Source: Pirellula staleyi DSM 6068 (GTDB lineage: Bacteria; Planctomycetota; Planctomycetia; Pirellulales; Pirellulaceae). Taken from it: a stretch of DNA of 32,000 nt. Below the pieces are notes generated by a model. That model did no database searches. It was given only the letters and a program-made list of their open reading frames with translations, and was not told the DNA's origin. The stretch's first letter is position 1. The number at the start of each line of letters is the position of its first letter. The stretch spans positions 5,790,001-5,822,000 of the forward strand of contig CP001848.1 of assembly GCA_000025185.1 (NCBI GenBank). The letters are read 5' to 3'. Below are positions 11,916 through 31,940 of this stretch, in pieces. The translations under genes and the position numbers were made by a program.

Positions 11916-12285
11916 GTCGATTAACCTTGCAACATAGCCCCATACAAGCCATACGAAGCTGCCCGGCTTTCACAAGGTAAAACCACTGAGGGAATCGGCG
12001 ACCCGATGGAAATTGACACATGCAGTGGATTAGTCCATGCGTATGCCGGAAGAATTGTGTTGTTGGCCATTTTCCACGCCTCTTATATTTACTATGGACT
12101 GACACCTGGACGTTAATTCCTTAGCTGCTCAGGACTCGCCAGTGCGTCACCACAAACTTTCGCTGCCTAGGTTGTCTTCAGGCTGGCACAAGGTATCTTG
12201 AGCCTACGATGACGCCCCCCACACATGAGCAAATGGCCAACTTGCCCCTTGGCCGCTTCTTCAGCCATCTTCGGAATAACCAAAA

Positions 12286-12900
12286 ATGTGGTTCTACGAC
12301 GCAAACAAACTGGCAGGCGCAATTCTTAGGCTTTATTGCCCAGTCACTCTCTCGTATACGTCTGGAACAACTCTTCCGGACGGAGGCTTCATCCTGGCAT
12401 GCAATCATGAGTCATACCTTGACCCTTGGTTTCTAGGGACTGTGTTTCCTCGCCGAATCCGTTTCCTCATTACGCATGAATGGTATTTCCGAAGCCGATG
12501 GTGGACTAACTTCTTTAGCGCACTGGGCACGATTCCTGTCAACCCCGCAAAACCGCTCTCAGCAATAAAGAGGGCCCGAGACCACTTGAAAAATGGTGAT
12601 GTCGTCGGCATCTTTCCTGAAGGACAGATTTCATGGACGGGGGAGTTGCTGCCCTTCCAACCGGGATTGGATTTGCTGTCGAAAACTGCGGACAGTCCAG
12701 TTGTGCCTGTCGCCCTCGTAGGAGCGAGAAATGTTTTGCCTGCCAACTGCCGACTACCGAGACCAAGGAAAGTGAGTGTACTCATTGGCAACCCATTTCG
12801 TCGCACGGAGATTGCGCATAGCTACACCGAAACCTTCTTAAACGACTTCATTCGAAACGAGGTGTCGCGACTGCGCCTTTGTCTCTCGACGGTTTGCTGA
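12286..12900 (+). CDS. plsC: 1-acyl-sn-glycerol-3-phosphate acyltransferase family (PlsC-like)
   Basis: 204 aa. It has the H-x4-D acyltransferase motif CNHESYLDP, FPEGQIS, and a PVVPVAL block. Confidence 0.85.
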   Translation: MWFYDANKLAGAILRLYCPVTLSYTSGTTLPDGGFILACNHESYLDPWFLGTVFPRRIRFLITHEWYFRSRWWTNFFSALGTIPVNPAKPLSAIKRARDHLKNGDVVGIFPEGQISWTGELLPFQPGLDLLSKTADSPVVPVALVGARNVLPANCRLPRPRKVSVLIGNPFRRTEIAHSYTETFLNDFIRNEVSRLRLCLSTVC

Positions 12901-12954
12901 TTGGTTACTGAAGTAGAAACTTAACGAACCACGCTATCTGGAGCGAACAGTTCA

Positions 12955-14088
12955 ATGGCATCATCACTCAAGTCGGCGGTCGCTCGGTCGCTCGCAGATG
13001 CCGACATCATCATCGGCGGATCGCGCGCGTGGGACATCACTGTGCACGACACCCGTATGTACACAGCCTTGGCGACATCAGGCTCTCTGGGGGCAGGCGA
13101 GTCTTACATGAACGGATGGTGGGACTGTGATGCACTTGACCAGATGGCAGAGCGGTATCTCCGCAGCATCTCAACATCGAAAATTGCCGGTGGTCGCTTT
13201 TATGGCCTTCTTGAGCGCATCCGCGCGAAATACATCGACCTGCAAGTCGGCCTTGGTGGGCGAGAAATCGCCCGAGTTCACTACGACCTTCCGTCCGATC
13301 TGTTCGAGTCAATGCTCGGTCCAACCATGAATTATTCGTGCGGATATTGGCGCGAAGCCAATGATCTGACGACAGCTCAAAATGCGAAAATGCATTTAAT
13401 CTGCCGAAAGCTTGGACTTCGGCCTGGAATGCGCGTCCTTGACGTTGGTTGTGGTTGGGGCGGTCTGATTCAGTTTGTGGTACGTGAATACTCATGCAGC
13501 GTGGTAGGAATAACGGTGTCGGCCGAGCAAGCACGCTACGCGTCGAAGAAATGCAACGCCTCTTCAAGCGAAGTTTATTTACTCGACTACCGTGACCTTC
13601 GGCCTGAGACTCACGGCACCTTTGATGCTATCACATCCGTTGGGATGCTTGAGCATGTCGGTCCCCGAAACTACGCTCGCTATTTCGACATTATGCGCCG
13701 ACTCCTCAAGCCATCTGGATTGCTCCTTGTGCAATCGTTTGGGAGAGAACGGAGCGAACCGGTGGACCGATGGATAAACCGATACATATTCCCCAACAGC
13801 TATGTACCAAATGGCACAGAACTGCTCACAGCCACGCGAGGCCGATTCATCGTCGAGGATTGGCACAATTTCGGAGCGGATTATGACCGCACACTATTGG
13901 CGTGGCACACCAACTTCGAGAATTGGGCAATAGACAAATGGAAAGTGACAGCCCCAAAACGATACCGAATGTGGCGCTACTATTTGTTGACATTCGCAGC
14001 TGGTTTTCGAGTAAGGGACCGCGTGCAATTGTGGCAAATCGTGTTGTCTCCCGAAGGTGTCCCCAAAGGCTACGTCTCACTGCGATAG
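12955..14088 (+). CDS. cfa: Cyclopropane-fatty-acyl-phospholipid synthase family SAM-dependent methyltransferase
   Basis: 377 aa. The SAM motif is VLDVGCGWGGL, and YSCGYW, SVGMLEHVG and FPNSYVP are typical CMAS-family blocks. Confidence 0.9.
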   Translation: MASSLKSAVARSLADADIIIGGSRAWDITVHDTRMYTALATSGSLGAGESYMNGWWDCDALDQMAERYLRSISTSKIAGGRFYGLLERIRAKYIDLQVGLGGREIARVHYDLPSDLFESMLGPTMNYSCGYWREANDLTTAQNAKMHLICRKLGLRPGMRVLDVGCGWGGLIQFVVREYSCSVVGITVSAEQARYASKKCNASSSEVYLLDYRDLRPETHGTFDAITSVGMLEHVGPRNYARYFDIMRRLLKPSGLLLVQSFGRERSEPVDRWINRYIFPNSYVPNGTELLTATRGRFIVEDWHNFGADYDRTLLAWHTNFENWAIDKWKVTAPKRYRMWRYYLLTFAAGFRVRDRVQLWQIVLSPEGVPKGYVSLR

Positions 14089-14109
14089 TGGCGAACTTGA
14101 TTGTCAATA

Positions 14110-15330
14110 CTACACAACACCACGGTTCCGTTTTGCGACAGATACTATAGCACGTTCAGCACCCCGAAACACTGGGTTTGCATGCCACACAACGGTTCCA
14201 GCTTCAAAACTGATGTTATCAATATTGTCAAGCATCCAATCGCACGCGGTGATGGCAATAATTCTTGCAAGTGGTGCTCCAAGGCAATAATGCACACCCC
14301 ACCCAAAACCCAGATGGCCCGACACATCTCTTTTAACGTCCATTGTCCCAGGCGATGAAAATGCATTTTCGTCACGATTTCCACTACCGAACAATAGAAC
14401 GACATTGTTGCCCTGAGGAATGATTGTTCCAGACAACAGGGAATCACGTGTGGCTTGCCTTGCTGACATTTGAATAGGTGACTCTAATCTGGCAGTCTCC
14501 TCGATAGCATTCGGTAACAATGCTCTCTCGTCCTGCAGCAATGAGTACTGCGACTTGTTGCTACTAAAGAGTAACATTGCATTGAACAAAAGGTCTGTGG
14601 TTGTTTGAAGCCCAGCGCTAACCACCCCGACAACATTGGAGACAATCTCCGTCTCACTAAGTCCTCCGCCTGAAGCTCTGTGAAATATCCATTCACCAAG
14701 TATCGAATCTCGCGGAACTACACCATTGTGACGATGAATTAGCGGTGTCAAGTATTCGTCAACCTTCTGTGCCGCATCTACCGCGCAAATTAGACGCTGA
14801 TCGAGCGGAACGAATGAGAATCCGAGAAACTCATAAATATCACTCGTCCATTGGCGAAGCTTACTAAAGTCTGCGGGGGGGAGTCCGAGCACTTGTGCGA
14901 ACACGTTTGTTGACAGCTTGGTGCAAAAACATTCAACTGCGTTCCATGAATCATTTAGGTCGATGTGGTCGACAACCTTCTTAAGCTCGGATATCACTAC
15001 ACTCTGAGCCATTCGCATCCGGGCAGGCAGGAATGCAGCACCAAGAGCTGTCTTCAGTCTTCGTCTACGATCACCATCTGTAAATAAAAGTCGATGGCCA
15101 AGGAGTCGAAACAGACTAGCAGCGCTTTCGCGTACTGAGGAATCCAATTGGTTGTAGTAGTGAGTTAATCGGTTGGACGCGAAATCTTCAGACGCAAGTA
15201 CCGTGCGAATGTCGTCATATCGGGCAACAAGCCAATACCCCATCTCGTCGTTATAGGCGATACCTGGCGTCGCTCTCAGTTGCGAGTACAACGCATAACG
15301 ATCGATTGCAAGTGCGTGTAAAATGGACAT
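14110..15330 (-). CDS. Cytochrome P450
   Basis: 406 aa. The ExxR motif is EETARLE and the heme-binding loop is FGWGVHYCLGAPLAR. Its ATG at 15330 lies 2 nt after the stop of the upstream 1358-aa gene (TAA 15335-15333). Confidence 0.9.
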   Translation of the reverse strand: MSILHALAIDRYALYSQLRATPGIAYNDEMGYWLVARYDDIRTVLASEDFASNRLTHYYNQLDSSVRESAASLFRLLGHRLLFTDGDRRRRLKTALGAAFLPARMRMAQSVVISELKKVVDHIDLNDSWNAVECFCTKLSTNVFAQVLGLPPADFSKLRQWTSDIYEFLGFSFVPLDQRLICAVDAAQKVDEYLTPLIHRHNGVVPRDSILGEWIFHRASGGGLSETEIVSNVVGVVSAGLQTTTDLLFNAMLLFSSNKSQYSLLQDERALLPNAIEETARLESPIQMSARQATRDSLLSGTIIPQGNNVVLLFGSGNRDENAFSSPGTMDVKRDVSGHLGFGWGVHYCLGAPLARIIAITACDWMLDNIDNISFEAGTVVWHANPVFRGAERAIVSVAKRNRGVV

Positions 15331-15332
15331 GG

Positions 15333-18300
15333 TTAGTCGCCTTGGACGACTTTACTAGGAGTAGCGCGACAATGTGAAATGTCACGACATTGTGTGAGTA
15401 TATCGATTAGCTTTTTAACTCCATACGCCTTAATCCGAGAGAATACAGCTGAGCCCTCGGACAACAACTCAATAAGCTTCGGACGAACAAACTCTGCATC
15501 GCCTTTGCTATAAACTGCCACTGACAATGCATACAAATAGTGAGCGAATGTGATTTCACGATGAACCTCGTCGATCGCGCTGTTCTGAATTTCAATGAAT
15601 GCGCGCTGTAAGGTTCGGTTCATTGGTGAGATGTTCGTTCTTCCATGCTCCTTTTGACACATCAGAGCGACAACGAATGGATCTGGTGCCTTACCAATAG
15701 CTGGCCAGAGAGATGGATACGGAATATCACCCTCGGCATTGAGCTTCTTCAAGTAGCACCATGCCACACTTTTTACAATCGCTGATATTTCGGCTCCCGC
15801 TGGGATATTCTCCCCCTTGATCCAATCCTGAAAGCGAGTGATGACTAGATTGCGATAGAAGTTGTCGTCATTCCGTAGTGCGTTTCGCCCTACGCCAGTC
15901 GCAAGAACCAATTGGGTAATGCCAGTCAGTGGGGTAGCAGATGTGAACAATGCATCGAGTGCGGGACCGTCAAATCGAATGTTTGCGATGCTACACATTG
16001 CCAAGAAGTTTCCAAGCACATACGGAGCTGTCGAAGCGGCCTCCATGAACGTTGCGAGTGTTTCGAGACTGACGGTAAACTCCTTGAGTCGTTCCCCAGC
16101 CATGCGGAACATAAGCTCGGTGCACGCCCCAAACGACAACTCATCAGGCTGGCTCCCTCGTGTGCAGCTCGCCAAGTAGAGTGCGGCCAATTGTTGCACC
16201 CAGTTGTCATGTGGAATTCGGTAAGTACGGCCGCGATACTCTGGCTCGCCAGGAATAGGATCATCTCCAAGTCGGGCGAAGACAGTCCTGTTAAGCAATG
16301 ACCTAAGGATGGAATCGTCAGCAAACAGGGGGAGCAACCGGGAGAGACGTGCGCGCTGAGACCGCACCTCCGGCGATTCAACGCCAGTCGGCGTATGTGA
16401 CCAGGCCTGGACGCGGGCAATCGCTTGAGACTGAATGTTGCGAAAGGACTGGCTACCTGGGTTGCTGCGAAAGAACTCCCAAGCCACAACAGAGCCCATG
16501 TCCCTCCACTGTTCTTCTGAGATCGCGGGAAAGGATTCGTTCAACCTTGAATCCCGTATCAACCATGAAAATGCTTCGTCGTAGATCGCTGTGACGGACT
16601 GCATTTGTTCATCTGGTATCGATTCAATATGAGGTCCGAGAATGGGCAGTATCAACGGTGATCGCACAAGTGGCTGTAGGGCCGGAGGCACTCGCTGCAA
16701 CTCTGATCTCAGGCGAGGATAGACGGTAAAAGCCTCTTCTTCGTTCGGCGCGCGAACAGTAAACCGCATCTGAGCCGAAGCAAGAGACTCACATTCGGGC
16801 AAGGTGGATCGAACGAAACTCACTAGGCGTGTCGCATTATTCAGCCCTGCTCCAGCAGGGTGCAGAACAACGCTCTGTATTACCCGCCTGATATCCGCCA
16901 CTTCAATCACGTTATGGTGACGGTCCAAAAACTCATCGACGGACTCAAGAAGCAGCAAACACTGTCCGTTATGCATCCAACGATAAACCCATTCGATCGA
17001 AATAGTGATGGGTGGTAGTCCGAATCGTTCTTTACTCTGATTCACTAGCAAGGACGCCATCTCGCACCAGGATCGAATGAGAAGATCCCACGCATGATTT
17101 GCATTCGCCTTAGGGCCGGAAAAGAGCGTCGCAACGTCTGTTGACGATATGTTCAACTGAGGTAGCAGCAGAAACATTGGCAAATGTTCTGGTTCAGTTG
17201 ACAATTGGCAGTATCGCAGGCACACGTCGCGGGCAAAGAAGCGAGCTAATACTGACTTTCCAACGTTTGCCTCGCCCTTCACTACCGCAATTGCCGGGCC
17301 ATTGCTGGCTTGTCGGGCAAATGCATTAAGCGTACTGAGTACTGCTACCTGTGGTCCGTCTTTACCCTGATTGTCCACTCCAAAAGGCTGAACACATCGG
17401 AAAGAAACCAGGAAGTCGTCCGCGCGACAAAGGGTCTCCCATGCAACGGCCAATGCAACTCCATCAAGCCAGCCCGAGAGGTGCCGTCGCAGGTGACTCT
17501 TCACGATATCGAAGTATGACTTGTTGACCTGCCGTATCGACGTGTGAGTCCGGCGAAAAGTGGCCGTTTCGGCATCCGTCCTCACCCAGAGTGTCTTGCC
17601 GTCCACTTCGCTCCGGTCTGCATAGTCTGTGACATGCGGCGCAATGACATTATCTGCCGCCGCAAGGTACTCAATTGCCAACGGGCGCGGCAGTCGAACC
17701 GCATCAAGGTCATTGATCAAGGAGACATACCGTTCCTCCAGTTTCCGAACATAGTCCCCGTGGTACTCCAATTGCCGGACAATCCGGTTATAACCGAAGT
17801 TCATGCCAAGCACGTTCAGCGAACGTAAGAGCGGCCAAAGCACCCACTCATAGACTCCGCCCCAGAAACGTGTCTTCCATTGATCACCACCAAAGTGGGG
17901 CACATCAAAATTGATGATTTGCCGCACAGCGAGAACTGCCAATCTCATGTCGCGGACAGGGGTCAATTCATCGTCGCTACGCCGCCCGGAAAGTTGACGT
18001 CGAAGCGAGATCTGAGAGTGCAACGCCTCTTCGTCAACGTCATTGCAAAGCCACTCCTTGACGACAAGTCCACCTGCGCTATGCGCGAGGACCAGGAGGT
18101 GCTGGTACCGGTCGAGTTCGGGCTTTATCAGGCTATGCAGTTGCCTGCCAGCCGCCGACAAGTCTGCCTCTTCAGTTAGCCCCGCCGGATAATTGAACAG
18201 CAGCGCATCGCATTCCAGCTTTAGGTGTTGTTGCACGGACAGATGGAGTTCGTCCCACGTTAAGCAATTGCTCCGAAAGCCATGCACCATGATCATCAAC

Positions 18301-19409
18301 AGGTCGGCGCGGTACCGTGGGCTATCCTGATTAGGGTAGTACCACCAGCCGTCCACTCCTGCGGATCGGGTGCATCCTGGTGGTGCGCCTGGAGTAGCCG
18401 TCCGTTCCGGTCTCTCTGGCTTCTCGTCAACATTTCCTACTCGGCTTTCCTTTCGGCTACTTCGAGTCGCACGAGGTAACTTCGGGAGATTGAGAGTGCC
18501 ATTCGTTGTTGCCGAGATGTGACGGGATATTGCGGGGAAGAACACACCTTGATTAGCATCGACCTCAGCTCCGCAATGCAGTGCAAGAAGTCGACCGTCC
18601 CGTTGAATACAGGGAGATCCTGAGGACCCGCCTTCCGTATCGACTGCATAGAGAACCCGATTCTGGTCTTGCAGCACGTAGCGACTCGCGATGGGCCCAT
18701 CGGCAATCTCAACGGGACGGCCATCTGGGCATTGGATTATGCATGCATAGTCGCATACATCGAGGTTTATCGACAGTGAGTCGTCGACCGCGAACCACCC
18801 GCGAACATCTCCGATGGGAACGGATAAGCGTACCAGCGCGTAGTCTAGTTCGTTTACTACACTGAATGAAACAAGGGCTTCTACTGCTGCCGGCAGAACA
18901 ACCTCACCATCTTCCTCACGAACAGAATGCTCCTTGAAGTCGAAGCGAAAAGCTATGCGGTGGTCGTCACGAAGTGTGCCATCGTCGATCTGTGATCTTA
19001 GTACGTGATAGTTGGTGATGATTAAATCGGAACCGACGAGAAACCCACTGCCAATCGCAGATCCGTCAATTTCGACTCGACAGACCTGAGGAATTCCTTT
19101 TTGGTAGATGGAACCGGGAATGAATCGATTCCGTTTGGTGAGCCGATTTTGCAGAACGTTACGGTATGCGCCCTTTGCCTCCGCCCGCAATACTTCAAGC
19201 TTTCCCGCGTGTTTGGTCAGGAGTCGCGATACCACCCAGACTTCGCCAACCAGCCCTTGGGCCTGCGCTCGCTGAAGGATGTGTGTTCCATCACAGGGTG
19301 AAACGACCTCGCCAAAAACGTACTCAGATAGGTGTCGCAGTTGATGATCTTCAAGTGTCTCATCAATTGCTACAATCAACTTGGACACGAAATTGTGTGA
19401 GCTGGTCAC
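15333..19409 (-). CDS. STAND (NACHT-type) NTPase fused to an N-terminal helical domain, a trypsin-like serine protease and an alpha/beta-hydrolase (esterase/lipase-like) domain
   Basis: 1358 aa, with a GTG start overlapping the upstream stop (GTGA at 19406-19409). Residues 1-95 form a helical domain. Residues about 100-300 (nt about 18510-19112) are a trypsin-like fold with H in ITNYHVL, D in LDYALV and S in GGSSGSP. Residues about 365-640 (nt about 17490-18317) are an alpha/beta hydrolase with MVHGF and the nucleophile elbow AHSAG. Residues about 695-900 (nt about 16710-17327) are a P-loop NTPase with Walker A GEANVGKS and NACHT-like Walker B LLLLESVDE. The C-terminal region of about 450 aa is helical. 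Confidence 0.85.
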   Translation of the reverse strand: MTSSHNFVSKLIVAIDETLEDHQLRHLSEYVFGEVVSPCDGTHILQRAQAQGLVGEVWVVSRLLTKHAGKLEVLRAEAKGAYRNVLQNRLTKRNRFIPGSIYQKGIPQVCRVEIDGSAIGSGFLVGSDLIITNYHVLRSQIDDGTLRDDHRIAFRFDFKEHSVREEDGEVVLPAAVEALVSFSVVNELDYALVRLSVPIGDVRGWFAVDDSLSINLDVCDYACIIQCPDGRPVEIADGPIASRYVLQDQNRVLYAVDTEGGSSGSPCIQRDGRLLALHCGAEVDANQGVFFPAISRHISATTNGTLNLPKLPRATRSSRKESRVGNVDEKPERPERTATPGAPPGCTRSAGVDGWWYYPNQDSPRYRADLLMIMVHGFRSNCLTWDELHLSVQQHLKLECDALLFNYPAGLTEEADLSAAGRQLHSLIKPELDRYQHLLVLAHSAGGLVVKEWLCNDVDEEALHSQISLRRQLSGRRSDDELTPVRDMRLAVLAVRQIINFDVPHFGGDQWKTRFWGGVYEWVLWPLLRSLNVLGMNFGYNRIVRQLEYHGDYVRKLEERYVSLINDLDAVRLPRPLAIEYLAAADNVIAPHVTDYADRSEVDGKTLWVRTDAETATFRRTHTSIRQVNKSYFDIVKSHLRRHLSGWLDGVALAVAWETLCRADDFLVSFRCVQPFGVDNQGKDGPQVAVLSTLNAFARQASNGPAIAVVKGEANVGKSVLARFFARDVCLRYCQLSTEPEHLPMFLLLPQLNISSTDVATLFSGPKANANHAWDLLIRSWCEMASLLVNQSKERFGLPPITISIEWVYRWMHNGQCLLLLESVDEFLDRHHNVIEVADIRRVIQSVVLHPAGAGLNNATRLVSFVRSTLPECESLASAQMRFTVRAPNEEEAFTVYPRLRSELQRVPPALQPLVRSPLILPILGPHIESIPDEQMQSVTAIYDEAFSWLIRDSRLNESFPAISEEQWRDMGSVVAWEFFRSNPGSQSFRNIQSQAIARVQAWSHTPTGVESPEVRSQRARLSRLLPLFADDSILRSLLNRTVFARLGDDPIPGEPEYRGRTYRIPHDNWVQQLAALYLASCTRGSQPDELSFGACTELMFRMAGERLKEFTVSLETLATFMEAASTAPYVLGNFLAMCSIANIRFDGPALDALFTSATPLTGITQLVLATGVGRNALRNDDNFYRNLVITRFQDWIKGENIPAGAEISAIVKSVAWCYLKKLNAEGDIPYPSLWPAIGKAPDPFVVALMCQKEHGRTNISPMNRTLQRAFIEIQNSAIDEVHREITFAHYLYALSVAVYSKGDAEFVRPKLIELLSEGSAVFSRIKAYGVKKLIDILTQCRDISHCRATPSKVVQGD

Positions 19410-20464
19410 TGCAGACCTCGTTCAAAGGCGATGTGTGCGGCCAAGTCTGGATGATCAACTAGCGGATTCCTATTTCCTTGCGCGGCAAAGATCGCTTGAT
19501 TGCGGTGGCGTTCGTATTCACTGACTGGATGGTCCTGGTGCCATTGAAGGAGCGTCTCAAGTCGATCTGGAGTGTACTCAGAAGTCGACGAATTGATTTC
19601 ACCGGGGTAGCGGAGGAGAAAGTAGAGCGTTGCTCGGGCAACCGTTCCTTTTCCAGCGTTCGGTTCGAACTTGTTGGTCTCGCTCTTGCCGCAGTCAGAG
19701 CGGATGGCCTCGCCAAAGTTGGTGAAGTCGAAATAGGGGGTGTTGCTACGAAAACTGTTGCACTTGGATTCGCAAGCAAACAAATGATGCAAGTCTCCTC
19801 GCATCGGTTGTCGCTTGTTGAACCATGACTGCGGCACCACGTGTTCACAGTTGTAAGGAAGATCGGCTTCCAACGATTCCAAGAATGCTGCTTCCAAAAC
19901 TGGGTTTGCGGCTGCTTCCGATCTTCGGAAGCGATTCATACGCTCACGACGGAGTCGAGCAACTTCGAGGTCACGAGCAATGAACTCAGTCGGCTCAAAC
20001 ATCTGGGTCGAGTAGATGCTGCGAATTTTATGATTCGGCTGCAGGTCCACCCACGGGTACAGATGAATCGCTGGTTTGTATCCCAGTACCTTTATGTGCG
20101 TGTTACGCACGAGTTTGCTCAATGCATCAAATAGCTGCGAAGGGTTGAGAGTTGAAGAGATGCCGGAATAGTACGCTTTTCGTTCAGCGGCATCGGTGTT
20201 TTCGTCGTAATAGGGGCGACTGCGGGACTCTTCGAAGATCTTCCTCGCTGCTTCGAAGTCCGCATCTTCCGGTTCCTCGGATGAGCGACTGGCTGCAAGA
20301 GACGGCGTAGCTGGAGGAGGGCTGGATGTGACAACTGGCGTTGCGACGCTCGGCGCTCCCCCAGTAGGAGTTCCCAATGTGACTGACACGGTTAGCGGGA
20401 TCGTCCAGGTAGCCGTTCTTGAGGTTTGGCGAGCTGAATCTGAAGGAGGTTCGTTTGGAAACAT
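19406..20464 (-). CDS. Endonuclease I family nuclease with N-terminal junction motif and Pro/Ser/Thr-rich linker
   Basis: The Endonuclease I landmarks are NCEHVVPQSWF and GDLHHLF...NSFRSN. The track ORF starts at TTG 20485. I prefer ATG 20464 because AGGAG lies 7 nt upstream on the minus strand. No signal-peptide-like N-terminus is present. Confidence 0.85.
   Translation of the reverse strand: MFPNEPPSDSARQTSRTATWTIPLTVSVTLGTPTGGAPSVATPVVTSSPPPATPSLAASRSSEEPEDADFEAARKIFEESRSRPYYDENTDAAERKAYYSGISSTLNPSQLFDALSKLVRNTHIKVLGYKPAIHLYPWVDLQPNHKIRSIYSTQMFEPTEFIARDLEVARLRRERMNRFRRSEAAANPVLEAAFLESLEADLPYNCEHVVPQSWFNKRQPMRGDLHHLFACESKCNSFRSNTPYFDFTNFGEAIRSDCGKSETNKFEPNAGKGTVARATLYFLLRYPGEINSSTSEYTPDRLETLLQWHQDHPVSEYERHRNQAIFAAQGNRNPLVDHPDLAAHIAFERGLQ
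19446..20417. repeat. 972-bp perfect direct repeat, copy 1 (Endonuclease I module plus linker plus junction motif)
   Basis: A row-by-row comparison with 29851-30822 (offset 10405) found no mismatch. The ORF track also gives identical antisense ORF translations in both copies. Confidence 0.9.
20366..20416 (-). other. Junction motif instance TATWTIPLTVSVTLGTP (N-terminus of the stand-alone Endonuclease I)
   Basis: Read directly from the translation of ORF 19406-20485, residues 24-40. Confidence 0.8.
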
Positions 20465-20544
20465 TAAGCAACTCCTAGAAGACAATCAAAGAGTCCAATT
20501 TTGCAATCAACCGACATCCGACACCAACTACAAGTTTTAAGCGA

Positions 20545-24992: not shown

Positions 24993-26093
24993 TCAGAGAT
25001 TGGCTTTCGCGGCAATCTTGGCGATGTATTTGTCCAGACTATGATCGCTGACGCTCGGGATGAGTCCTTCGGTTTGCGGCATTGTGTGTGACTCAGTCAA
25101 GGGACGATTGACGCTGACAACTTCCTGACCAATCCGAGATTGCAGTCCCTGATACTCAGCTTCGGTGAGCATGGGCGGACCGGGTTTGAACGCCTCATCG
25201 TTTATCGATTCAGCGAATGCTCGCTCGGTGTTCGGCAAGGATTGGCCGTTCTGTAAACGACCTTGGGCATCAAAGTGTAGCAACCGACCGACATGCTCAT
25301 AGCCAGGAGGGACACGTGGCACGATGTCATCGTCGTTAACGAACCGGAAGAACTTTCCGGAGTAGTTTTGCGAGAAGAACATTCGGAAAGAGCCACGCCC
25401 GACAGCCGGTTGCCCAAATGTGACACCCCAGGAAGCAGGCATGAAGTGCTGCCACTCTGCTGCCATTACGGTTGCGAGTGCTCCACCCAGGCTGTGGCCA
25501 GTTAGGATGAGCGTTTGCCCGGCAATTCCCGAAAGCGCCGACCTCAACCGCGACTCCACAGCCTGAAACGCGCCAAGAAATCCCCTGTGCGTAACTCCGT
25601 ACTCGCGCGTTCGTCCCGCAACATTGATGTTTCGGAGCCAATCGCCACGACTCTCAGTTCCGCGAAACGCGACCAAAGCTATCTCGGGAGTCAGCGCGAC
25701 AAAGCATTGTGTTTCATCAACATCGATGAACTCACAAGAACTGAATCCCCAAGACCTTGCCGACCCAAGGCACGTCGACTTAACGCTCTGCTCGGACTCG
25801 TAAGCCAACTTGCTGGCGAGCGCCAACGATAAAGCCGCTTTCCAGGTGAAGGTCGACTTGGAAAGAGATGAAAGATCAAACGATGCTGTGTCAATCGCTG
25901 GCGGTGACGTCGAGATCTGGCCTTCTTGAAGGCCCAATGGAGTATTCACAGGAGCCGACACTCCCGTGCCGACCAGCATCGGCCGACCGATCTCAACGGT
26001 AACGCGCAAGTCGAGTGGAAACGTTGCTATCGATTCAGGCACGACGCAATGTTCTTTGTCTTGCCTAGTGCATTCTCGCAAGTTGTTCGACAT
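24993..26093 (-). CDS. Class-3 (fungal-type) lipase family protein with N-terminal junction motif
   Basis: The lipase_3 landmarks are the nucleophile elbow GHSLGGALA, NDDDIVPRVP (Asp) and SDHSLDKY (His). The track ORF starts at GTG 26174, which would overlap the upstream gene by 35 nt. ATG 26093 has GGAG 8 nt upstream and is my preferred start. Confidence 0.85.
   Translation of the reverse strand: MSNNLRECTRQDKEHCVVPESIATFPLDLRVTVEIGRPMLVGTGVSAPVNTPLGLQEGQISTSPPAIDTASFDLSSLSKSTFTWKAALSLALASKLAYESEQSVKSTCLGSARSWGFSSCEFIDVDETQCFVALTPEIALVAFRGTESRGDWLRNINVAGRTREYGVTHRGFLGAFQAVESRLRSALSGIAGQTLILTGHSLGGALATVMAAEWQHFMPASWGVTFGQPAVGRGSFRMFFSQNYSGKFFRFVNDDDIVPRVPPGYEHVGRLLHFDAQGRLQNGQSLPNTERAFAESINDEAFKPGPPMLTEAEYQGLQSRIGQEVVSVNRPLTESHTMPQTEGLIPSVSDHSLDKYIAKIAAKANL
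25980..26030 (-). other. Divergent junction motif instance IATFPLDLRVTVEIGRP (N-terminus of the lipase)
   Basis: Residues 49-65 of ORF 24993-26174. It aligns without gaps to the other copies, keeping A-T-aromatic, the alternating hydrophobic positions and the terminal G-x-P. Confidence 0.6.
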
Positions 26094-26139
26094 TCTCGTC
26101 GCTCCAAGTGTTACAGAAGACTCATCTACGGAAATTGCT

Positions 26140-29100
26140 CTACTCCGTGCTGGATCGGTTCCAAAAGTGCTCACAGAACCCCTGATTCTGTGTTTGGCTC
26201 AATAGGTCGAAGTACAGTTTCGTCGGGTCAAACCCAATCATTCCCTCGCGAACAATTCTGAGCAATACAAATGCAAGCTGGCAGAAATAGCTCACTTTGT
26301 GATCTTTGCTCCAACTCTTGCTGAATCGGCGGATCGACTCCCAAAGGCACCCCTCCGCTTCCTTCATCTCCCCACTTGCAATGTGCACCATAGATAGAGC
26401 ACAGAAATACTCAGCCGCGACCTCCAGCGAGTACGTTGCTAATAATGGGAAATGAACAAGCACTACTGACTTGGTACGCATGTCTTTTAGGCAATCAAGT
26501 CTCTCGTGTTGCCAAGCCAACCTGATTCGACGAGCTGCCGCCCGCACTCCGAGTGAGCCCTTTTTAAGCTGTCGTTCCAACTCTACCTGGAAGGACTTTG
26601 GTGACCATTGGCTATACTTCCACCAATCAGCGCGACATGCCAGCGTTCTCGGATCGTCAATTTCAACGGTTTTCTCCAGAATGTCGAGTGCGCGTCTAAG
26701 ATCAAAACGATTCTGACAGAAGATGTCGTCTAACTGGTGCTGTGAAACGGCGTCGGAAGAAGCACGAGCTTCCGCTACGTGCCGAAGAACCTCGGTAGCA
26801 GACTGGTGCAAGATTACAGCAGCTTCGGGCAAGAATGGTGCAAGGTCGGGGCTGTCCGCGATTTCCTGGATGGCCGTATCGCGGTTTTGACAACGCTTTA
26901 AACATTCAACAAGCTGAGGTTCCAGTTTGGGTAGATTCCTAAACGCTTCAACCTCAAAGAGGGCGGCGGGCAAACTCTGCAAGAGTTCCTCGGCAGATTT
27001 CTCGCCTTGATTCATCCGGAACATCAGATAATTATCAATGACATTTTTAGTGGCTCCAGACCAGTGAGCATTGTCGCCCGAAAACTTTGCCAATGTTTCG
27101 GTAGCGCTGGCATAGAGTCGTTCGGCTTCCTCCGGCTCGAGTGTTTCCAGCGCCTTCGCAAGTTTCGCGGCGGCTACAGCGTATTGCGGATGCAAGGTGT
27201 CGTAAACTTTCCGAGTCACTTCCAGTACCTCTCGTCGCAAGTCTAACGCCTCAGCACCTCGCTTCTGTTCCTCGATTGCGGATGCCAGAAGGCTCGTCAG
27301 CACACTTACTCGCTGGAGGTCGTCTGGAAAAAGCTTCAAAATGGTCTTTAGGCTTTCTCGTATTTGCTTCTCGGCTTCTGCAGGTCGTTTCAGATCAATG
27401 AGCTCTTGGCCGAGGCACATCAGAGTAACCGCAACTTCGTGGCTCTCACGGCCATGAGCTTGCTCCAAAGCGATCAGCGTTCGCTCCAAAATCGGCATCC
27501 AATTGCACTGCTTGGCGAGCCCACTTTCATCATCAACGCCCCAGTACTTCGCAAACTGGTAAATTTGCAATTGCTGTTCATGGGCTTGCGGCGAGTCAGC
27601 ACCAAACTTATCAGATTGAATGCTCCAGGCACGAAGGTATAGCTGCGCGGCGTCCCTGTTACGTGACGTGTCCCGAAGCAATTCGGCAAGACGCGACAAT
27701 GTCTCGGCTACTTCAGACGAGTTCGGTCCAAATTCCTGTTCACGGCGAGCTAACGCTTCTCGGAGAAGCGGTTCTGCTACCTTCATCTCACCAATAGCTG
27801 TGAGGTAGGTTCCATAAGAAGTGAGTAATCGTGAAAGTGGTCCAGGATTCGGAAACTTGGGAAGATGCGAAAGAACTGATTCGACATGTGGACGAAGTCT
27901 CCTGCATAGCGGCCACTCAGAAACGTATCTGGAATTCGCTGGAAACGATTTGGCAAGCATTCCAACTGCCAAGCGAAACGTTTCTGAAAGATGATCTGGC
28001 GAGTCGTGTTGGGCTCGCAAACGTGTGAATTCCTGAACCAAAGAATGAACGCTTATAGCTTTAGTCTCGTTTGCTTCAAAAGCAAACGAACATCTCTTGA
28101 GAGCCTTTAGCGCGACTCCGACATCGAGACCCGAAGATGCCAGGCAATCCAGGTTTTCAAGTTGAATGACGACCCGTCGATCAAGCTCAGTCGAGGCACA
28201 CCACGAAAGAACCTCCAAAAGTACCTTGGCACTATCAGCAAGTGTCTCCCAGCTTGTGTCCCAAGCAGTTGCAAGAGTTCGATGCCAGTCGTCACGAATG
28301 CCATGCATGCCCCAACCTCGAACCGACTGGTTGCGCTCACGGTAGAATCGCAGGCACTCGTCCAGAGGCTTGGCCTGACCGTCGATCCAATTTGCGACGA
28401 TTTTCAGTGCCAGCGGCAAGCCACCGAGGAGCCGACTGAATTCTGCCGCAGAGGCATCATCATCTTGCAACGACTTCGTTCGGCGCGGGGTGGCATCAAG
28501 TATAAATTGTGCTGTCTCCGACTCGCTCAAACCTCGCAATGCAATTGGCGTGGTAGGTGTGCTCCAGAAAGACTGGTCAAGACGAGAGGTAATCAGGAAA
28601 CGCCTATTTTCCCCGAATTTCCGAACGAACACACACACGGCGTCGCGAGATTGGATTGTGTCTGCACCGTCGATCACAAGCAACCAATTCGAGTTGTTTC
28701 GCAGCCATCTCTCTACAACTTCCTTCCTTCGCAATTCCGACGCCGAGGGATCGCAATCACATTCGCTAGAACTGATTTCGTTGCCGACAAAGGCCGCCAA
28801 TCCGGCTTGAATTGAGCTGTCAAGTGACACATTGACGTACAGAAGTTTGTCATAATCACACTTGTTGTCGCAACCAAATCGTCGAGCTACCGTGGATTTG
28901 CCGACACCTCCGATCCCGGTTAATACAACTGCCGCCGATTTCACAAAGTGATTGCTAATCTGCTCAAACACTTCTTTTTGAAGGACGAAGTGCTCCTCGC
29001 GAACCGTATCTAAAAACCAATCGCTCATCACAGTCGAGTCTTCCGACCTCAGAGCAACTGGTTCATAACCCAACTCCTCCAGGCGAAGCAAAATGCTCTT

Positions 29101-29814
29101 GAACGACACTGCCTTAAGTTGCAGCCTCTCGTCATATCGTGCTCGATGAAGGCCACACAGCGAATAATTCTTGCCTTCCTTGAGAAAAACTCCACCGCCA
29201 CTCATACCCGCTCTTGAACCAGTACCATCGAACGTCACTAGGCCGTTGGCGGTCTTCTCGACCTTCTGAAGGTTGTAACCTGGCTTCGGGCGGACGTTAT
29301 TGTCATTTCCATTGACATAGCCACTGAAGCCTTTGTGGCCTTCTGGATACCCAGAGATCACGCATTCGTTGCCTGCGGCCAATTCCTGATTAATCCAGTT
29401 TCCGGCGATCAACTTCTTATCTTGGCAGTTGCGCCACGCCCTATCGTCGAAACTCAAGAGTGCCCAGTCCGCATTTTCAACATCGGCGATCGGCTGATCG
29501 TAAAAGTGTGAACCGGCATAGGTGGTCAGCGGTTTCACCGCCGTTTCCAACTTGACTGGAATTCCCTTGATTGGGTCGTAACCATACCCGGCTGGCGCAA
29601 CCCAAATATTTTCGTGTTGGGGGCCAAGCTGCTGGGGGGTACTCCCCAAACGCCGAATTACATGGGCACATGTAAGAATGAATGTCTCTTCAGTGCCGGG
29701 CTGTCCCTTCTTTCTTAATCGGATACCAACCCCGGAACCTTGTCCAATCTCGCCTTTCGATGATGCTTGGATGTACCACACAGTACTGCTCGGGTAAGGA
29801 ATCATCTCGCTCAT
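26140..29814 (-). CDS. STAND NTPase (NB-ARC/AP-ATPase type) with N-terminal trypsin-like protease and C-terminal TPR repeats
   Basis: 1224 aa, with an ATG overlapping the upstream stop (ATGA at 29811-29814). Residues 1-250 (nt about 29065-29814) are the protease: H in LTCAHV, D in ADWALL, S in GMSGGGV. Residues about 275-560 (nt about 28135-28992) are the NB-ARC: Walker A GIGGVGKST, Walker B LLVIDGAD, RFLITSR, and the GLPL motif GGLPLAL. Residues about 640-900 are TPR-like repeats (e.g. AETLSRLAELLRDTSRNRDAAQLYLRAW). A helical tail follows. Confidence 0.9.
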   Translation of the reverse strand: MSEMIPYPSSTVWYIQASSKGEIGQGSGVGIRLRKKGQPGTEETFILTCAHVIRRLGSTPQQLGPQHENIWVAPAGYGYDPIKGIPVKLETAVKPLTTYAGSHFYDQPIADVENADWALLSFDDRAWRNCQDKKLIAGNWINQELAAGNECVISGYPEGHKGFSGYVNGNDNNVRPKPGYNLQKVEKTANGLVTFDGTGSRAGMSGGGVFLKEGKNYSLCGLHRARYDERLQLKAVSFKSILLRLEELGYEPVALRSEDSTVMSDWFLDTVREEHFVLQKEVFEQISNHFVKSAAVVLTGIGGVGKSTVARRFGCDNKCDYDKLLYVNVSLDSSIQAGLAAFVGNEISSSECDCDPSASELRRKEVVERWLRNNSNWLLVIDGADTIQSRDAVCVFVRKFGENRRFLITSRLDQSFWSTPTTPIALRGLSESETAQFILDATPRRTKSLQDDDASAAEFSRLLGGLPLALKIVANWIDGQAKPLDECLRFYRERNQSVRGWGMHGIRDDWHRTLATAWDTSWETLADSAKVLLEVLSWCASTELDRRVVIQLENLDCLASSGLDVGVALKALKRCSFAFEANETKAISVHSLVQEFTRLRAQHDSPDHLSETFRLAVGMLAKSFPANSRYVSEWPLCRRLRPHVESVLSHLPKFPNPGPLSRLLTSYGTYLTAIGEMKVAEPLLREALARREQEFGPNSSEVAETLSRLAELLRDTSRNRDAAQLYLRAWSIQSDKFGADSPQAHEQQLQIYQFAKYWGVDDESGLAKQCNWMPILERTLIALEQAHGRESHEVAVTLMCLGQELIDLKRPAEAEKQIRESLKTILKLFPDDLQRVSVLTSLLASAIEEQKRGAEALDLRREVLEVTRKVYDTLHPQYAVAAAKLAKALETLEPEEAERLYASATETLAKFSGDNAHWSGATKNVIDNYLMFRMNQGEKSAEELLQSLPAALFEVEAFRNLPKLEPQLVECLKRCQNRDTAIQEIADSPDLAPFLPEAAVILHQSATEVLRHVAEARASSDAVSQHQLDDIFCQNRFDLRRALDILEKTVEIDDPRTLACRADWWKYSQWSPKSFQVELERQLKKGSLGVRAAARRIRLAWQHERLDCLKDMRTKSVVLVHFPLLATYSLEVAAEYFCALSMVHIASGEMKEAEGCLWESIRRFSKSWSKDHKVSYFCQLAFVLLRIVREGMIGFDPTKLYFDLLSQTQNQGFCEHFWNRSSTE

Positions 29815-31940
29815 CCCAGTCCCTTTTCAAAATCAAGATGCTGGGCCCAATCTGGATGATCAACTAGCGGATTCCTATTTCCTTGCGCGGCAAAGATCGC
29901 TTGATTGCGGTGGCGTTCGTATTCACTGACTGGATGGTCCTGGTGCCATTGAAGGAGCGTCTCAAGTCGATCTGGAGTGTACTCAGAAGTCGACGAATTG
30001 ATTTCACCGGGGTAGCGGAGGAGAAAGTAGAGCGTTGCTCGGGCAACCGTTCCTTTTCCAGCGTTCGGTTCGAACTTGTTGGTCTCGCTCTTGCCGCAGT
30101 CAGAGCGGATGGCCTCGCCAAAGTTGGTGAAGTCGAAATAGGGGGTGTTGCTACGAAAACTGTTGCACTTGGATTCGCAAGCAAACAAATGATGCAAGTC
30201 TCCTCGCATCGGTTGTCGCTTGTTGAACCATGACTGCGGCACCACGTGTTCACAGTTGTAAGGAAGATCGGCTTCCAACGATTCCAAGAATGCTGCTTCC
30301 AAAACTGGGTTTGCGGCTGCTTCCGATCTTCGGAAGCGATTCATACGCTCACGACGGAGTCGAGCAACTTCGAGGTCACGAGCAATGAACTCAGTCGGCT
30401 CAAACATCTGGGTCGAGTAGATGCTGCGAATTTTATGATTCGGCTGCAGGTCCACCCACGGGTACAGATGAATCGCTGGTTTGTATCCCAGTACCTTTAT
30501 GTGCGTGTTACGCACGAGTTTGCTCAATGCATCAAATAGCTGCGAAGGGTTGAGAGTTGAAGAGATGCCGGAATAGTACGCTTTTCGTTCAGCGGCATCG
30601 GTGTTTTCGTCGTAATAGGGGCGACTGCGGGACTCTTCGAAGATCTTCCTCGCTGCTTCGAAGTCCGCATCTTCCGGTTCCTCGGATGAGCGACTGGCTG
30701 CAAGAGACGGCGTAGCTGGAGGAGGGCTGGATGTGACAACTGGCGTTGCGACGCTCGGCGCTCCCCCAGTAGGAGTTCCCAATGTGACTGACACGGTTAG
30801 CGGGATCGTCCAGGTAGCCGTTGATCCGGCGGCGGCGACCGGCGAAGTTGCAGGAACTACCGTGCTAGGAACACTGACCTGAACCGGGCGCTGTCCAGGG
30901 ACGGGCTCCGACTCTGGGTGAATCGGCTGTGGGTTCAACGCCACGTCTCGCAATGTCCCTTGCGTGGACGTCAGGCCTCCCAGTCCTGAAAGGTGCTCCC
31001 GGATTGCCACAACGCGAATCCCTTCGTTGGCGATCCAGTGAATTCGCTCGTCCCCCATCTCTTCTCGCCAAAGCAGGCCGTCAGTCGTCAGGAGGCGTCC
31101 AAGGTTGTCCCTCTCAGGAAAACCCGAGTGATGTAGAGCCACCACCTCCCATTGATCGTTGAAGACTGGAGCACCGGATGAGCCCGGAGTTGTGTCGGTC
31201 TCGTAGTACAAAAACCTGTCTTCGGTGTTGGGGAATCGCAATACGCGATTTTCTCGCAACGCAATCTGCTTCAGGTCTCCGCCTGGGTGTTGAATCACCG
31301 TGACGCTTTCACCAGCCAGGATTTCCCCTTCGCTAGCGGAAAGTGGATTGAACCCAAAAGTCGACAATTGAGTACTTGAGTCCCCTTCGGCGGCTTCAGA
31401 CACCGTGACAACCGTCAGGTCGAGTTCTTCTTCTGGACTCGTCGTAAAGAAAAGGTCGGGACGCAAACGAAATCGCGCGACGGGCAGTTCGCGGCCATCT
31501 AGCCCAAGTTGAAAATTGAACTCCACGACCGCGTTTCCGGCCCGGGCAGCGGAATCCAAGACATGACTGTTCGTCATGAAGAGGGACGGAGAGATCATCG
31601 AGCCTGTCCCGTAGCCCAACACGGATCCCGAGCTCGACCGAATGACCACTCGGGCTACAGCACGACCGGCCATTCTGCCCGCGTCGAGATACCGAACCGA
31701 CAGTAGTTCGTTTCTGCCGATGATGCGTTCAAGGCCAATTCGACGCGAGTCGAATTTCCCCTCCAGTGCTGGACCCGAGCCCGTCGCACTGCGGATGATG
31801 TCGGTAGAAAATCCCAGCCTTCGAAGTCGCCGTTCTATAGCGTCTGACGGATTACCTCTCAAAAGCTCGAACTGAGTTCGCGACTCAAGTCGTGCTCGGA
31901 ACGATTCATGGCGAATAGCAGGAGCGGCCTCTAGTGGCAC
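29811..31940 (-). CDS. Trypsin-like serine protease fused to Endonuclease I family nuclease (possibly 5'-truncated by the window)
   Basis: 709 aa from GTG 31940. The frame stays open to position 32000, so the true start may lie outside the window. Residues about 75-305 (nt about 31026-31718) are the protease: GTGSMISPSLFMTNSHVL, DLTVVTV, TPGSSGAPVF. The junction motif and a P/S/T linker follow, then Endonuclease I (nt about 29814-30668): NCEHVVPQSWF, GDLHHLF...NSFRSN. Confidence 0.85.
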   Translation of the reverse strand: MPLEAAPAIRHESFRARLESRTQFELLRGNPSDAIERRLRRLGFSTDIIRSATGSGPALEGKFDSRRIGLERIIGRNELLSVRYLDAGRMAGRAVARVVIRSSSGSVLGYGTGSMISPSLFMTNSHVLDSAARAGNAVVEFNFQLGLDGRELPVARFRLRPDLFFTTSPEEELDLTVVTVSEAAEGDSSTQLSTFGFNPLSASEGEILAGESVTVIQHPGGDLKQIALRENRVLRFPNTEDRFLYYETDTTPGSSGAPVFNDQWEVVALHHSGFPERDNLGRLLTTDGLLWREEMGDERIHWIANEGIRVVAIREHLSGLGGLTSTQGTLRDVALNPQPIHPESEPVPGQRPVQVSVPSTVVPATSPVAAAGSTATWTIPLTVSVTLGTPTGGAPSVATPVVTSSPPPATPSLAASRSSEEPEDADFEAARKIFEESRSRPYYDENTDAAERKAYYSGISSTLNPSQLFDALSKLVRNTHIKVLGYKPAIHLYPWVDLQPNHKIRSIYSTQMFEPTEFIARDLEVARLRRERMNRFRRSEAAANPVLEAAFLESLEADLPYNCEHVVPQSWFNKRQPMRGDLHHLFACESKCNSFRSNTPYFDFTNFGEAIRSDCGKSETNKFEPNAGKGTVARATLYFLLRYPGEINSSTSEYTPDRLETLLQWHQDHPVSEYERHRNQAIFAAQGNRNPLVDHPDWAQHLDFEKGLG
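29851..30822. repeat. 972-bp perfect direct repeat, copy 2
   Basis: It is identical to 19446-20417, and similarity falls off sharply on both flanks. Confidence 0.9.
30771..30821 (-). other. Junction motif instance TATWTIPLTVSVTLGTP (between the trypsin-like and Endonuclease I modules)
   Basis: Residues 374-390 of the 709-aa ORF. Confidence 0.8.
30771..31031. repeat. 261-bp diverged repeat, copy B, located directly after the trypsin-like domain
   Basis: It encodes ANEGIRVVAIREHLSGLGGLTSTQGTLRDVALNPQPIHPESEPVPGQRPVQVSVPSTVVPATSPVAAAGSTATWTIPLTVSVTLGTP. Its 3' end overlaps the 972-bp repeat. Confidence 0.85.

Follow-up and report, generated by a model that had tools for sequence, protein, structure and literature searches.

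A NACHT-type relative of NLR immune receptors with a predicted EAD1-trypsin head and an alpha/beta-hydrolase, encoded in a protease, nuclease and lipase operon of Pirellula staleyi

Organization of the gene F locus

We analyzed a 32,000-nucleotide stretch of Pirellula staleyi DSM 6068 DNA (GenBank assembly GCA_000025185.1, contig CP001848.1, positions 5,790,001 to 5,822,000 of the forward strand), referred to here as the window and numbered from its first letter, with a focus on the gene that we call F. Gene F is a single unbroken open reading frame (ORF) with a GTG start codon and a stop codon at 15333-15335. Its product is a bacterial relative of the animal and plant NLR immune receptors, in which a predicted EAD1 adaptor domain, a trypsin-like protease, a basic linker, an alpha/beta-hydrolase, a NACHT module and an all-helical C-terminal domain follow one another (Table 1). 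An earlier reading of this DNA, made from the letters and translations without database searches (the sequence-only reading), had proposed such a domain order, and every landmark that it quoted is found in the ORF in the order given.

Gene F belongs to a run of seven genes (A to G), all on the minus strand, which either overlap or lie no more than 59 nucleotides (nt) apart. The stop codon of gene E overlaps the start codon of F by 4 nt, and gene G begins 2 nt past the F stop codon. Only two full-length relatives of F were found in an index of 5.8 billion proteins, both of them metagenomic: P0002 (73% identity, contig L001) and P0003 (45% identity, contig L003). PADLOC and NCBIfam assigned no family to F apart from trypsin.

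Table 1. Features of the window, with positions counted from its first letter and the basis of each assignment
Feature	Position	Strand	Basis
Gene F, EAD1-trypsin-alpha/beta-hydrolase-NACHT-helical protein, 1358 residues	15333..19409	-	ORF list and full-length homologues
F residues 7-77, divergent EAD1, predicted homotypic adaptor	19179..19391	-	hhalign, hidden Markov model (HMM), BLASTP
F residues 106-300, trypsin-like serine protease (PA clan, Trypsin_2), H135/D189/S263	18510..19094	-	Pfam PF13365
F residues 301-360, basic Pro-rich linker	18330..18509	-	sequence
F residues 361-640, PlaB-/DUF676-like alpha/beta-hydrolase (lipase/phospholipase type), H376-G377 oxyanion, nucleophile S444, D586, H622	17490..18329	-	family profile, Foldseek, model, conservation
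F residues 690-1090, predicted NACHT-clade STAND module (nucleotide-binding domain, helical domain, winged helix)	16140..17342	-	conservation, Pfam matches of homologues, Foldseek
F residues 1091-1358, C-terminal all-helical repeat-like domain, presumed sensor	15336..16139	-	AlphaFold2 model
Gene A, trypsin, Pro/Ser/Thr-rich linker, junction motif (residue 377), Endonuclease I	29811..31940	-	Pfam
Gene B, trypsin, NB-ARC, TPR, 1224 residues, second STAND protein	26140..29814	-	Pfam NB-ARC, TPR_12, Trypsin_2
Gene C, degenerate junction motif and class-3 lipase, no trypsin	24993..26174	-	Pfam Lipase_3, E 1.5e-21
Gene D, trypsin, junction motif, NucA (Endonuclease_NS), junction motif, S8 subtilase, 1466 residues	20545..24945	-	Pfam
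Gene E, junction motif and Endonuclease I, no trypsin	19406..20485	-	Pfam Endonuclease_1, E 1.8e-35
Gene G, cytochrome P450	14110..15330	-	Pfam p450
Junction motif copy, coding DNA TATWTIPLTVSVTLG	30772..30822	-	direct-repeat family D3, peptide scan
Further junction motif copies	20367-20417, 22496-22546, 23699-23749	-	
Degenerate junction motif copy, minus strand	~25983-26021		
Cfa (cyclopropane-fatty-acyl-phospholipid synthase), convergent with F and G	12955..14088	+	NCBIfam PRK11705 equivalog, 496 bits against 400
PlsC-/Aas-type phospholipid acyltransferase	12286..12900	+	Pfam Acyltransferase
Type I restriction R subunit (HsdR)	98-2896	-	
PD-(D/E)XK nuclease	4503-4997		
HTH-WYL-WCX regulator	6856-7962		
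PAD_porph-family protein	7959-8798		
D12-class (Dam-like) adenine methyltransferase	8987-9883		

Domains of the gene F protein

An alignment of 45 sequences (A4) served as the basis of the family column counts given below and of the AlphaFold2 model of residues 340-1358. The Walker A motif of F, GEANVGK(718)S at residues 712-719, has its G, G and K invariant in 45/45 sequences. The Walker B motif, LLLLE(822)SVDE at residues 818-826, falls in columns with the composition D 42/E 3, G 27/S 15/A 3, D 45 and E 40/D 5, a D[GAS]hDE signature. The sensor-1 arginine R867 (45/45), the TPL proline P918 (44/45) and the winged-helix histidine H1067 (44/45) each fall on the strand or helix where they would be expected in the model. 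F on its own scores 18 bits with the Pfam NACHT model (PF05729) at residues ~700-840, against a cut-off of 26.7, and at least ten homologues pass the gathering score, among them P0014 (37.3), P0075 (39.5), P0035 (38.3), P0128 (35.9) and P0031 (31.9).

The AlphaFold2 model reached a predicted local distance difference test score (pLDDT) of 88.1 and a predicted template modeling score (pTM) of 0.88; with three close homologues only, the model was unusable (pLDDT 38.8). The best Foldseek matches in the PDB were SAMD9, NLRP7, Dark, NAIP/NLRC4, NLRP14, Apaf-1, NLRC4, NRC1 NB-ARC and NLRP3, at a probability of 1.0 or 0.99 and E-values from 6e-6 to 1e-3. The motifs, the Pfam-passing homologues and the fold matches identify the ATPase as a predicted NACHT-clade STAND module. 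The NLR-like NTPase of the sequence-only reading is thereby borne out, and profile and structure searches assigned residues 695-900 to no ATPase outside the STAND class. The same reading had described about 450 residues of helical region behind the NTPase motifs. This part is indeed mostly helical, with its first ~200 residues forming the helical domain and the winged helix of the NACHT module; the remainder, the C-terminal domain, has ~14 helices at high confidence in the model and no Pfam match.

The alpha/beta-hydrolase carries the motifs MVH(376)GF and AHS(444)AG. In the model, S444 sits between strand 98-104 and helix 107-119 (model numbering), which is the nucleophile-elbow position. The nucleophile column holds Ser in 34/45 aligned sequences, the other 11 including kinase-fused variants; H is found in 34 sequences at the H622 column, D in 27 and E in 4 at the D586 column, and the HG pair at 376-377 is conserved. 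F remains below the Pfam thresholds for DUF676 (16.2-19.3 bits against 20.3) and Abhydrolase_6 (21.7 against 26.3), both over residues ~369-455, and a homologue (P0027) lies above the DUF676 threshold with 24.0 bits. A phmmer search of the hydrolase region alone against PDB sequences gave no match.

PlaB is a Legionella pneumophila phospholipase with an xHSxG nucleophile elbow and a Ser-Asp-His triad. It was the top PDB match of the family profile (6zth, E 5.8e-5), and Foldseek with the hydrolase-NACHT model matched both PlaB and the Bacillus lipase BlEst2. By profile and by fold, PlaB (PDB 6zth, 6zti) is the best solved-structure relative of the F hydrolase, at ~15% identity over ~210 aligned positions. 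PlaB itself is a stand-alone virulence phospholipase with a C-terminal regulatory domain of its own. The general alpha/beta-hydrolase fold of the F domain is secure, and its subfamily assignment is not.

The trypsin-like domain is the one part of F that is assigned directly by Pfam, with a Trypsin_2 match at residues 120-277 (E 5.6e-19, 69.7 bits against a cut-off of 27.6). Its motifs are TNYH(135), D189 and GGSS(263)GSP, and H135, D189 and S263 align with the His, Asp and Ser columns that are invariant in 120/120 relatives of this head. The triad is also intact in the F homologues and in the products of genes A, B and D. The catalytic residues of both hydrolase heads are invariant down to the homologue at 45% identity, and they align with the active sites, as the sequence-only reading had supposed when it described two different intact hydrolase heads on one protein.

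The N-terminal helical domain (residues 1-95) had been taken, with caution, for an adaptor. Residues 1-345 as a query retrieved 158 proteins, mostly of 330-375 residues and annotated as Trypsin_2 plus EAD1 (PF19955), and the nearest head relatives from genome contigs were likewise EAD1-Trypsin_2 proteins. BLASTP alignments to several EAD1-trypsin proteins are collinear and start at F residue 3. When three F-type N-termini were compared with an 89-sequence EAD1 alignment in hhalign, the probability was 86.6% with an E-value of 4.4e-6 over 71 of ~90 columns; the real profile scored 32.5, a reversed profile 13.5 and 60 column shuffles at most 14.7. The N-terminus of P0003 scored 16.6 bits on an EAD1 HMM built from 89 domains, against at most 8.6 in 900 shuffles. 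Comparison with a smaller EAD1 alignment of four sequences was weak (probability 10%), F itself does not reach the Pfam EAD1 model, and a word-index search with the 107-residue F N-terminus gave no match. Because of the EAD1-trypsin relatives, the collinear BLASTP alignments, the HMM score and the hhalign result with its controls, residues ~7-77 are assigned by sequence to a divergent EAD1, a domain put forward as a homotypic adaptor in the passages of Kaur et al. that deal with it; this takes the adaptor idea further than its own first wording.

In domain order the F head resembles the EAD1-trypsin proteins (PF19955 plus PF13365) of vWA-MoxR, GAP1 and related ternary systems, which are its closest sequence relatives and match it in length (330-375 residues, against 345 for the F head). 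Those proteins are free-standing, whereas in F the unit is joined to an entire NLR-like protein, with an EAD1 that lies below the Pfam detection limit. The closest single relative of the head is a metagenomic protein of 475 residues (P0158) with an F-like N-terminus (…CAEFVLG…) and a trypsin domain, followed by an unrelated stretch of ~140 residues where F has its hydrolase-NACHT unit.

The sequence-only reading of F was thus right, and for three of the four domains it needed deeper evidence, since the Pfam scores of F are sub-threshold for DUF676, Abhydrolase_6 and NACHT.

The hydrolase-NACHT core family

A HMMER search with residues 340-1358 returned 207 cluster representatives at E <= 0.001 among 1.84 billion proteins. 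A typical member has ~1000 residues and no trypsin domain, starts ~20 residues before the equivalent of F residue 360, and aligns with F from its own residue ~20 to its end, with its hydrolase nucleophile at about residue 100 and its Walker A at about residue 370. Since these ~1000-residue matches align nearly end to end, the hydrolase, NTPase and helical tail form a complete, recurring protein, to which F adds 340 N-terminal residues. The sequence-only reading had suggested a check of whether the hydrolase is a variable insert; in the homologues it is a constant head, and the variable part of the family is whatever precedes it. Judged from these alignments, the hydrolase is the ancestral, constant head of this NACHT family and the EAD1-trypsin unit a rare addition.

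Several members have nothing or membrane helices before the hydrolase. Others carry a TIR or SEFIR domain together with an apparently active hydrolase (P0063, P0128), a Ser/Thr kinase with a residue other than Ser in the aligned hydrolase Ser column (P0035, P0054, P0075, P0080), or a kinase and a hydrolase-like stretch in which the Ser is replaced by Gly (P0066). Double heads thus recur in the family, either as TIR or SEFIR plus hydrolase or as kinase plus degenerate hydrolase.

Between F and P0003 the lowest conservation (29% identity) is found in the linker at residues 301-360, and this basic, Pro-rich segment marks the fusion joint between head and core. Identity between the two proteins is 32-33% in the EAD1 and in the C-terminal domain, against 60% in the trypsin domain; fast divergence of the two ends beside a conserved protease is the pattern expected of a receptor. 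F also illustrates how NLRs gain heads, by fusion of a complete EAD1-trypsin gene onto a complete hydrolase-NACHT gene.

Effector modules and the junction motif of the operon

The genes upstream of F encode effector modules, each of which (Endonuclease I twice, NucA, S8 subtilase and lipase) is preceded, within a Pro/Ser/Thr-rich linker, by a junction peptide of the form [ST]xTWTIP[LI]xV[SA][VIM][ST][LIF]G. In gene D the two copies lie at residues 403 and 804. The copies are 63-100% identical to the reference copy, with 96-100% identity of the coding DNA at three sites, and the motif also occurs near position 1057 of L001 and position 1863 of L003. No described family was found for it. In appearance the motif suggests either a recombination joint or an element for protease docking or cleavage.

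A duplication of 979 nt at 99.8% identity (19439-20417 and 29844-30822) copied the Endonuclease I module of gene A to gene E, and its boundary is exactly the junction motif. At the second joint of gene D, positions 22500-22757 are 86% identical to 30777-31033 of gene A. The D homologue of L001 breaks off precisely at the junction that precedes the S8 module, and an 83-residue Endonuclease I remnant keeps the 4-nt overlap with the start of the F homologue; in L003 a lipase module of the gene C type follows a trypsin and the motif within one fused protein. The end point of the A/E duplication, the truncated D of L001 and the trypsin-lipase fusion of L003 argue that effector modules are shuffled between genes at the junction motif, and C and E, which have no trypsin part, are orphan effector modules. 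All three trypsin-headed F-type genes (window, L001 and L003) lie directly downstream of trypsin-motif-effector genes, and no such genes are annotated beside the trypsin-less relatives in the neighborhoods read.

Swappable C-terminal cassettes are also what a secreted polymorphic-toxin locus aimed at competitors would contain, with F as an accessory. The conserved motif before each toxin-like module, the orphan modules C and E that lack an N-terminal part, and the recent 99.8% duplication ending exactly at the motif would all fit such a locus. It would, however, have to be secreted, and inspection by eye revealed neither a signal peptide nor a secretion domain at the N-terminus of A, D, E or F; the modules are not followed by small immunity-like genes, and two STAND NTPases and an EAD1 point to an intracellular, regulated system. 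Because neither signal peptides nor immunity genes were seen, we regard a polymorphic-toxin locus as very improbable.

Comparison with known systems

The closest described system is the NucA-trypsin type ("System 3") of Kaur, Burroughs, Iyer and Aravind (2020, eLife, PMC7159879), which is a computational prediction only. The system as described there contains trypsin-NucA fusions that are sometimes flanked by S8 peptidases, and several paralogous trypsins, one of which is fused to EAD1 in some operons; its STAND NTPase bears an N-terminal Death-like domain and trypsin. A proteolytic cascade is proposed to deploy the nuclease. In the window, gene D combines Trypsin_2, Endonuclease_NS and Peptidase_S8, further trypsins are found on A and B, and an EAD1-trypsin head is predicted on the STAND protein F. 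By domain content the operon matches the NucA-trypsin type in its trypsin-NucA protein with S8, its trypsin paralogues, its EAD1-trypsin and its trypsin-headed STANDs (B and F).

There are also differences. The STAND component in the passages of Kaur et al. is bDLD2 plus trypsin plus STAND, whereas here B has the trypsin alone and F has EAD1, trypsin and the hydrolase-NACHT unit, so that the bDLD2 position holds EAD1 in F and nothing in B. The paper's text on NucA-trypsin systems says nothing of Endonuclease I or class-3 lipase modules, of the junction motif, or of adjacent Cfa, P450 and acyltransferase genes. In its exact form the architecture of F is very rare, and F is a variant of a suicide or immunity system that has been predicted by computation. 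In a side observation on the second STAND gene, the NB-ARC/TPR part of B resembles the TPR protein of the FxSxx-COOH system in NCBIfam, below threshold.

A mechanistic precedent comes from Avs1 (AVAST type 1) and the Hachiman protease-pro-nuclease pairs. Tuck et al. (2025, Science, PMC12799240) demonstrated experimentally for Avs1b that its STAND-fused trypsin activates, by cleavage, a pro-nuclease encoded by another gene. As in F, a trypsin-like protease forms the STAND N-terminus in these pairs, and the nuclease of the neighboring gene is inactive until cleaved. The Avs1 nuclease has a gated metallo-beta-lactamase (MBL) fold and no protease of its own, whereas the nucleases of the operon are Endonuclease I and NucA behind their own trypsins; F further differs from the Avs1 protease-STAND by its lipase-like domain and EAD1. 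Pfam found no MBL domain in the operon and PADLOC gave no match of F to Avs1. Since the operon has no MBL nuclease, F is not a member of the Avs1 type, and by analogy it may at most work like Avs1.

The bNACHT preprint (Kibby et al., bioRxiv 10.1101/2022.07.19.500537) gives D[GAS]hDE as the NACHT Walker B signature. To judge from the preprint text, bNACHT proteins share with F this module, variable N-terminal effectors and a fast-diverging C-terminus; an alpha/beta-hydrolase head is absent from the effectors named in that text. In fungi, SesB-like lipase heads on NACHT proteins are common (Sordariales survey, PMC12258605). These resemble F in domain order, with a lipase-type domain directly N-terminal to NACHT or NB-ARC and helical repeats behind it, and they differ in being eukaryotic and in having no added protease or EAD1.

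A proposed switch mechanism for gene F

We propose, with a probability of roughly 0.55, that F is a cytoplasmic NLR-like switch and the last regulatory component of a seven-gene protease, nuclease and lipase operon, in which a trigger would lead to oligomerization, the protease would free neighboring effectors, the lipase would become active, and suicide or growth arrest would follow. This proposal is made because of the architecture, the intact active sites, the tight coupling of the genes, the 3/3 co-occurrence with effector genes, the receptor-like divergence, the defense-island-like surroundings and the published precedents (PMC7159879, PMC12799240). The trigger would be sensed by the fast-evolving C-terminal helical domain, and nucleotide exchange and oligomerization of the NACHT module would cluster the three N-terminal modules. 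The F trypsin, active through proximity, could then cut the pro-effectors encoded upstream (A and D, perhaps also C and E) in the Pro/Ser/Thr-rich linkers around the TWTIPLxVSVxLG junction, and thereby free the Endonuclease I, NucA, lipase and subtilase modules. In parallel, the PlaB-like hydrolase would attack membrane or other acyl lipids, and EAD1 would recruit EAD1-tagged proteins encoded elsewhere in the genome. The likely outcome would be cell suicide or growth arrest, by which the invader would be blocked.

Several observations weigh against this proposal. The effector proteins A and D carry intact trypsins of their own and could process themselves without F, and the true activator might be B, the second trypsin-STAND protein of the operon. 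In F the canonical first Asp of Walker B is replaced, conservatively, by Glu822; P0003 has Asp at this position. No second EAD1 copy was found in all six frames of the window, in keeping with what the sequence-only reading had noted, nor in eight related or family loci that included L001 and L003; the "EAD principle", under which another protein of the locus carries a second EAD copy, therefore does not hold for the 32-kb window, L001 and L003. None of the PADLOC models, including those named "nacht", matched the hydrolase-NACHT core. Many family members lie beside fatty-acid-modifying genes or in housekeeping-like neighborhoods, which leaves room for a non-immune lipid role. Sensing, oligomerization, cleavage at the motif and the protease responsible for it, the lipid substrate and the phenotype are proposals.

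Some of these points would fit F as a recruited, amplifying effector. B, or an EAD1-bearing core elsewhere, would then be the sensor, and F would be brought in by way of its EAD1, or through cleavage by another trypsin, and would add lipase and protease activity downstream. Kaur et al. (PMC7159879), in the passages concerned, call the NucA-trypsin STAND a "coupled effector" and EAD1 a recruiter of extra effectors to a core; B has the classical NB-ARC-TPR architecture of a receptor, and the EAD1 of F has no partner nearby. F nevertheless has a complete NOD module and a large, fast-diverging C-terminal domain of the sensor type. Moreover, ~200 of its relatives are hydrolase-NACHT proteins that stand alone; the neighbors read include no B-like partner, and L001 and L003 have an F homologue without an adjacent B homologue as far as the contigs extend. 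An amplifier role for F is on balance unlikely.

F is a rare fusion of adaptor, protease and lipase modules on one predicted NLR-like switch, next to the pro-effectors that would be the expected targets of its protease. At F the proteolytic-cascade model for bacterial NLR systems could be tested directly, since the two outputs should come apart when the protease Ser, the lipase Ser and the Walker A Lys are mutated.

Fatty-acyl genes beside the core family

The Cfa and acyltransferase genes beyond gene G (Table 1) are part of a wider association. The acyltransferase is best matched in NCBIfam, at a sub-threshold score, by the corresponding part of acyl-ACP--phospholipid O-acyltransferase, and the gene is conserved in L001, as is the order of F followed by the P450 gene. 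A Cfa/CMAS gene adjoins an F-family gene in ten loci (the window, L001, L003, L018, L019, L020, L021, L053, L057 and the contig of P0011), with differing gene order and orientation and with Cfa/CMAS identities that track those of the NACHT proteins. Other fatty-acyl neighbors are a fatty-acid desaturase, a fatty-acid hydroxylase, a 4HBT thioesterase, a FAD oxidase and an acyl-CoA dehydrogenase, together with a flavin monooxygenase-like ORF that was read from sequence without a family search. Such neighbors were seen in the window (12286-15330), L001, L003, L018-L022, L025-L027, L053, L057 and L088, with P450 and an Aas-like acyltransferase in addition in the window and L001. Several of these loci lie on mobile-element-like DNA.

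Among the 60 metagenome loci scanned, ~25 loci of one large clade have no fatty-acyl gene within 6 kb and show housekeeping-like synteny; the tree is a rough neighbor-joining one. CMAS as a universal neighbor of the family was rejected, since it is absent from this clade. A lipid-related function for the core family would be consistent with this pattern.

The core might primarily be a regulated lipid-remodeling enzyme. In that case NACHT would control a phospholipase A-type activity that, together with Cfa, desaturases, P450, hydroxylases and an acyltransferase of the lysophospholipid type, serves the turnover or release of modified acyl chains during stress. The protease head would then be a lineage-specific add-on, and immunity would not be the main role. 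In favor of this, fatty-acyl-modifying genes adjoin family members in many of the deep branches, in no fixed order; the divergence of CMAS parallels that of the NACHT proteins, membrane helices occur at the N-terminus of several members, and a large derived clade sits in housekeeping-like synteny. Yet the family includes TIR/SEFIR, kinase and EAD1-trypsin heads, which are typical of conflict systems, and several loci lie on mobile or defense-type DNA (relaxase, TrwB, transposases, reverse transcriptase and PIN genes). The link to lipid genes is also absent in ~25 loci, and F in the window is translationally coupled to a nuclease gene. We therefore consider a main role in lipid remodeling doubtful.

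A more speculative idea combines the lipid association with the switch. The hydrolase-NACHT family would be an undescribed lipid-centered NLR system, in which a NACHT switch controls a phospholipase-type enzyme alongside fatty-acyl-modifying neighbors (Cfa, desaturase, hydroxylase, P450, monooxygenase, thioesterase and acyltransferase), and F would be a bridge, through its acquired EAD1-trypsin head, to a protease-nuclease cascade with effector cassettes exchanged at the junction motif. The neighbors could mark self membranes, or a modified fatty acid could be released as a signal or toxin. As a whole this is a tentative suggestion that we think improbable. An alpha/beta-hydrolase-NACHT family with such neighbors is not mentioned in the searched text of the bNACHT preprint, a 2026 STAND survey and two Aravind-lab papers. 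If functional, the link to fatty-acid genes would join bacterial NLR-type switches to lipid chemistry, and together with the cassette-junction motif it is the part of the locus most worth following up.

The Cfa gene at 12955-14088 also matches the PADLOC model "mad2" of the MADS defense system (E 3.6e-22) over its S-adenosylmethionine-binding domain, which probably reflects a shared methyltransferase fold.

Other features of the window

Outside the operon, the window looks like a defense island in its predicted gene content, with a type I restriction subunit, a nuclease, a regulator and an adenine methyltransferase among the genes listed in Table 1. The region 10500-12200 has no long ORFs and consists of gene debris, in which positions 10725-11224 resemble the PAD_porph gene region at 8291-8827 (77%). 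Positions 11668-11908 resemble part of the lipase gene C (25665-25903, 87.6%), and a fragment of a lipase module therefore lies beyond the block formed by F, G, cfa and the acyltransferase gene.

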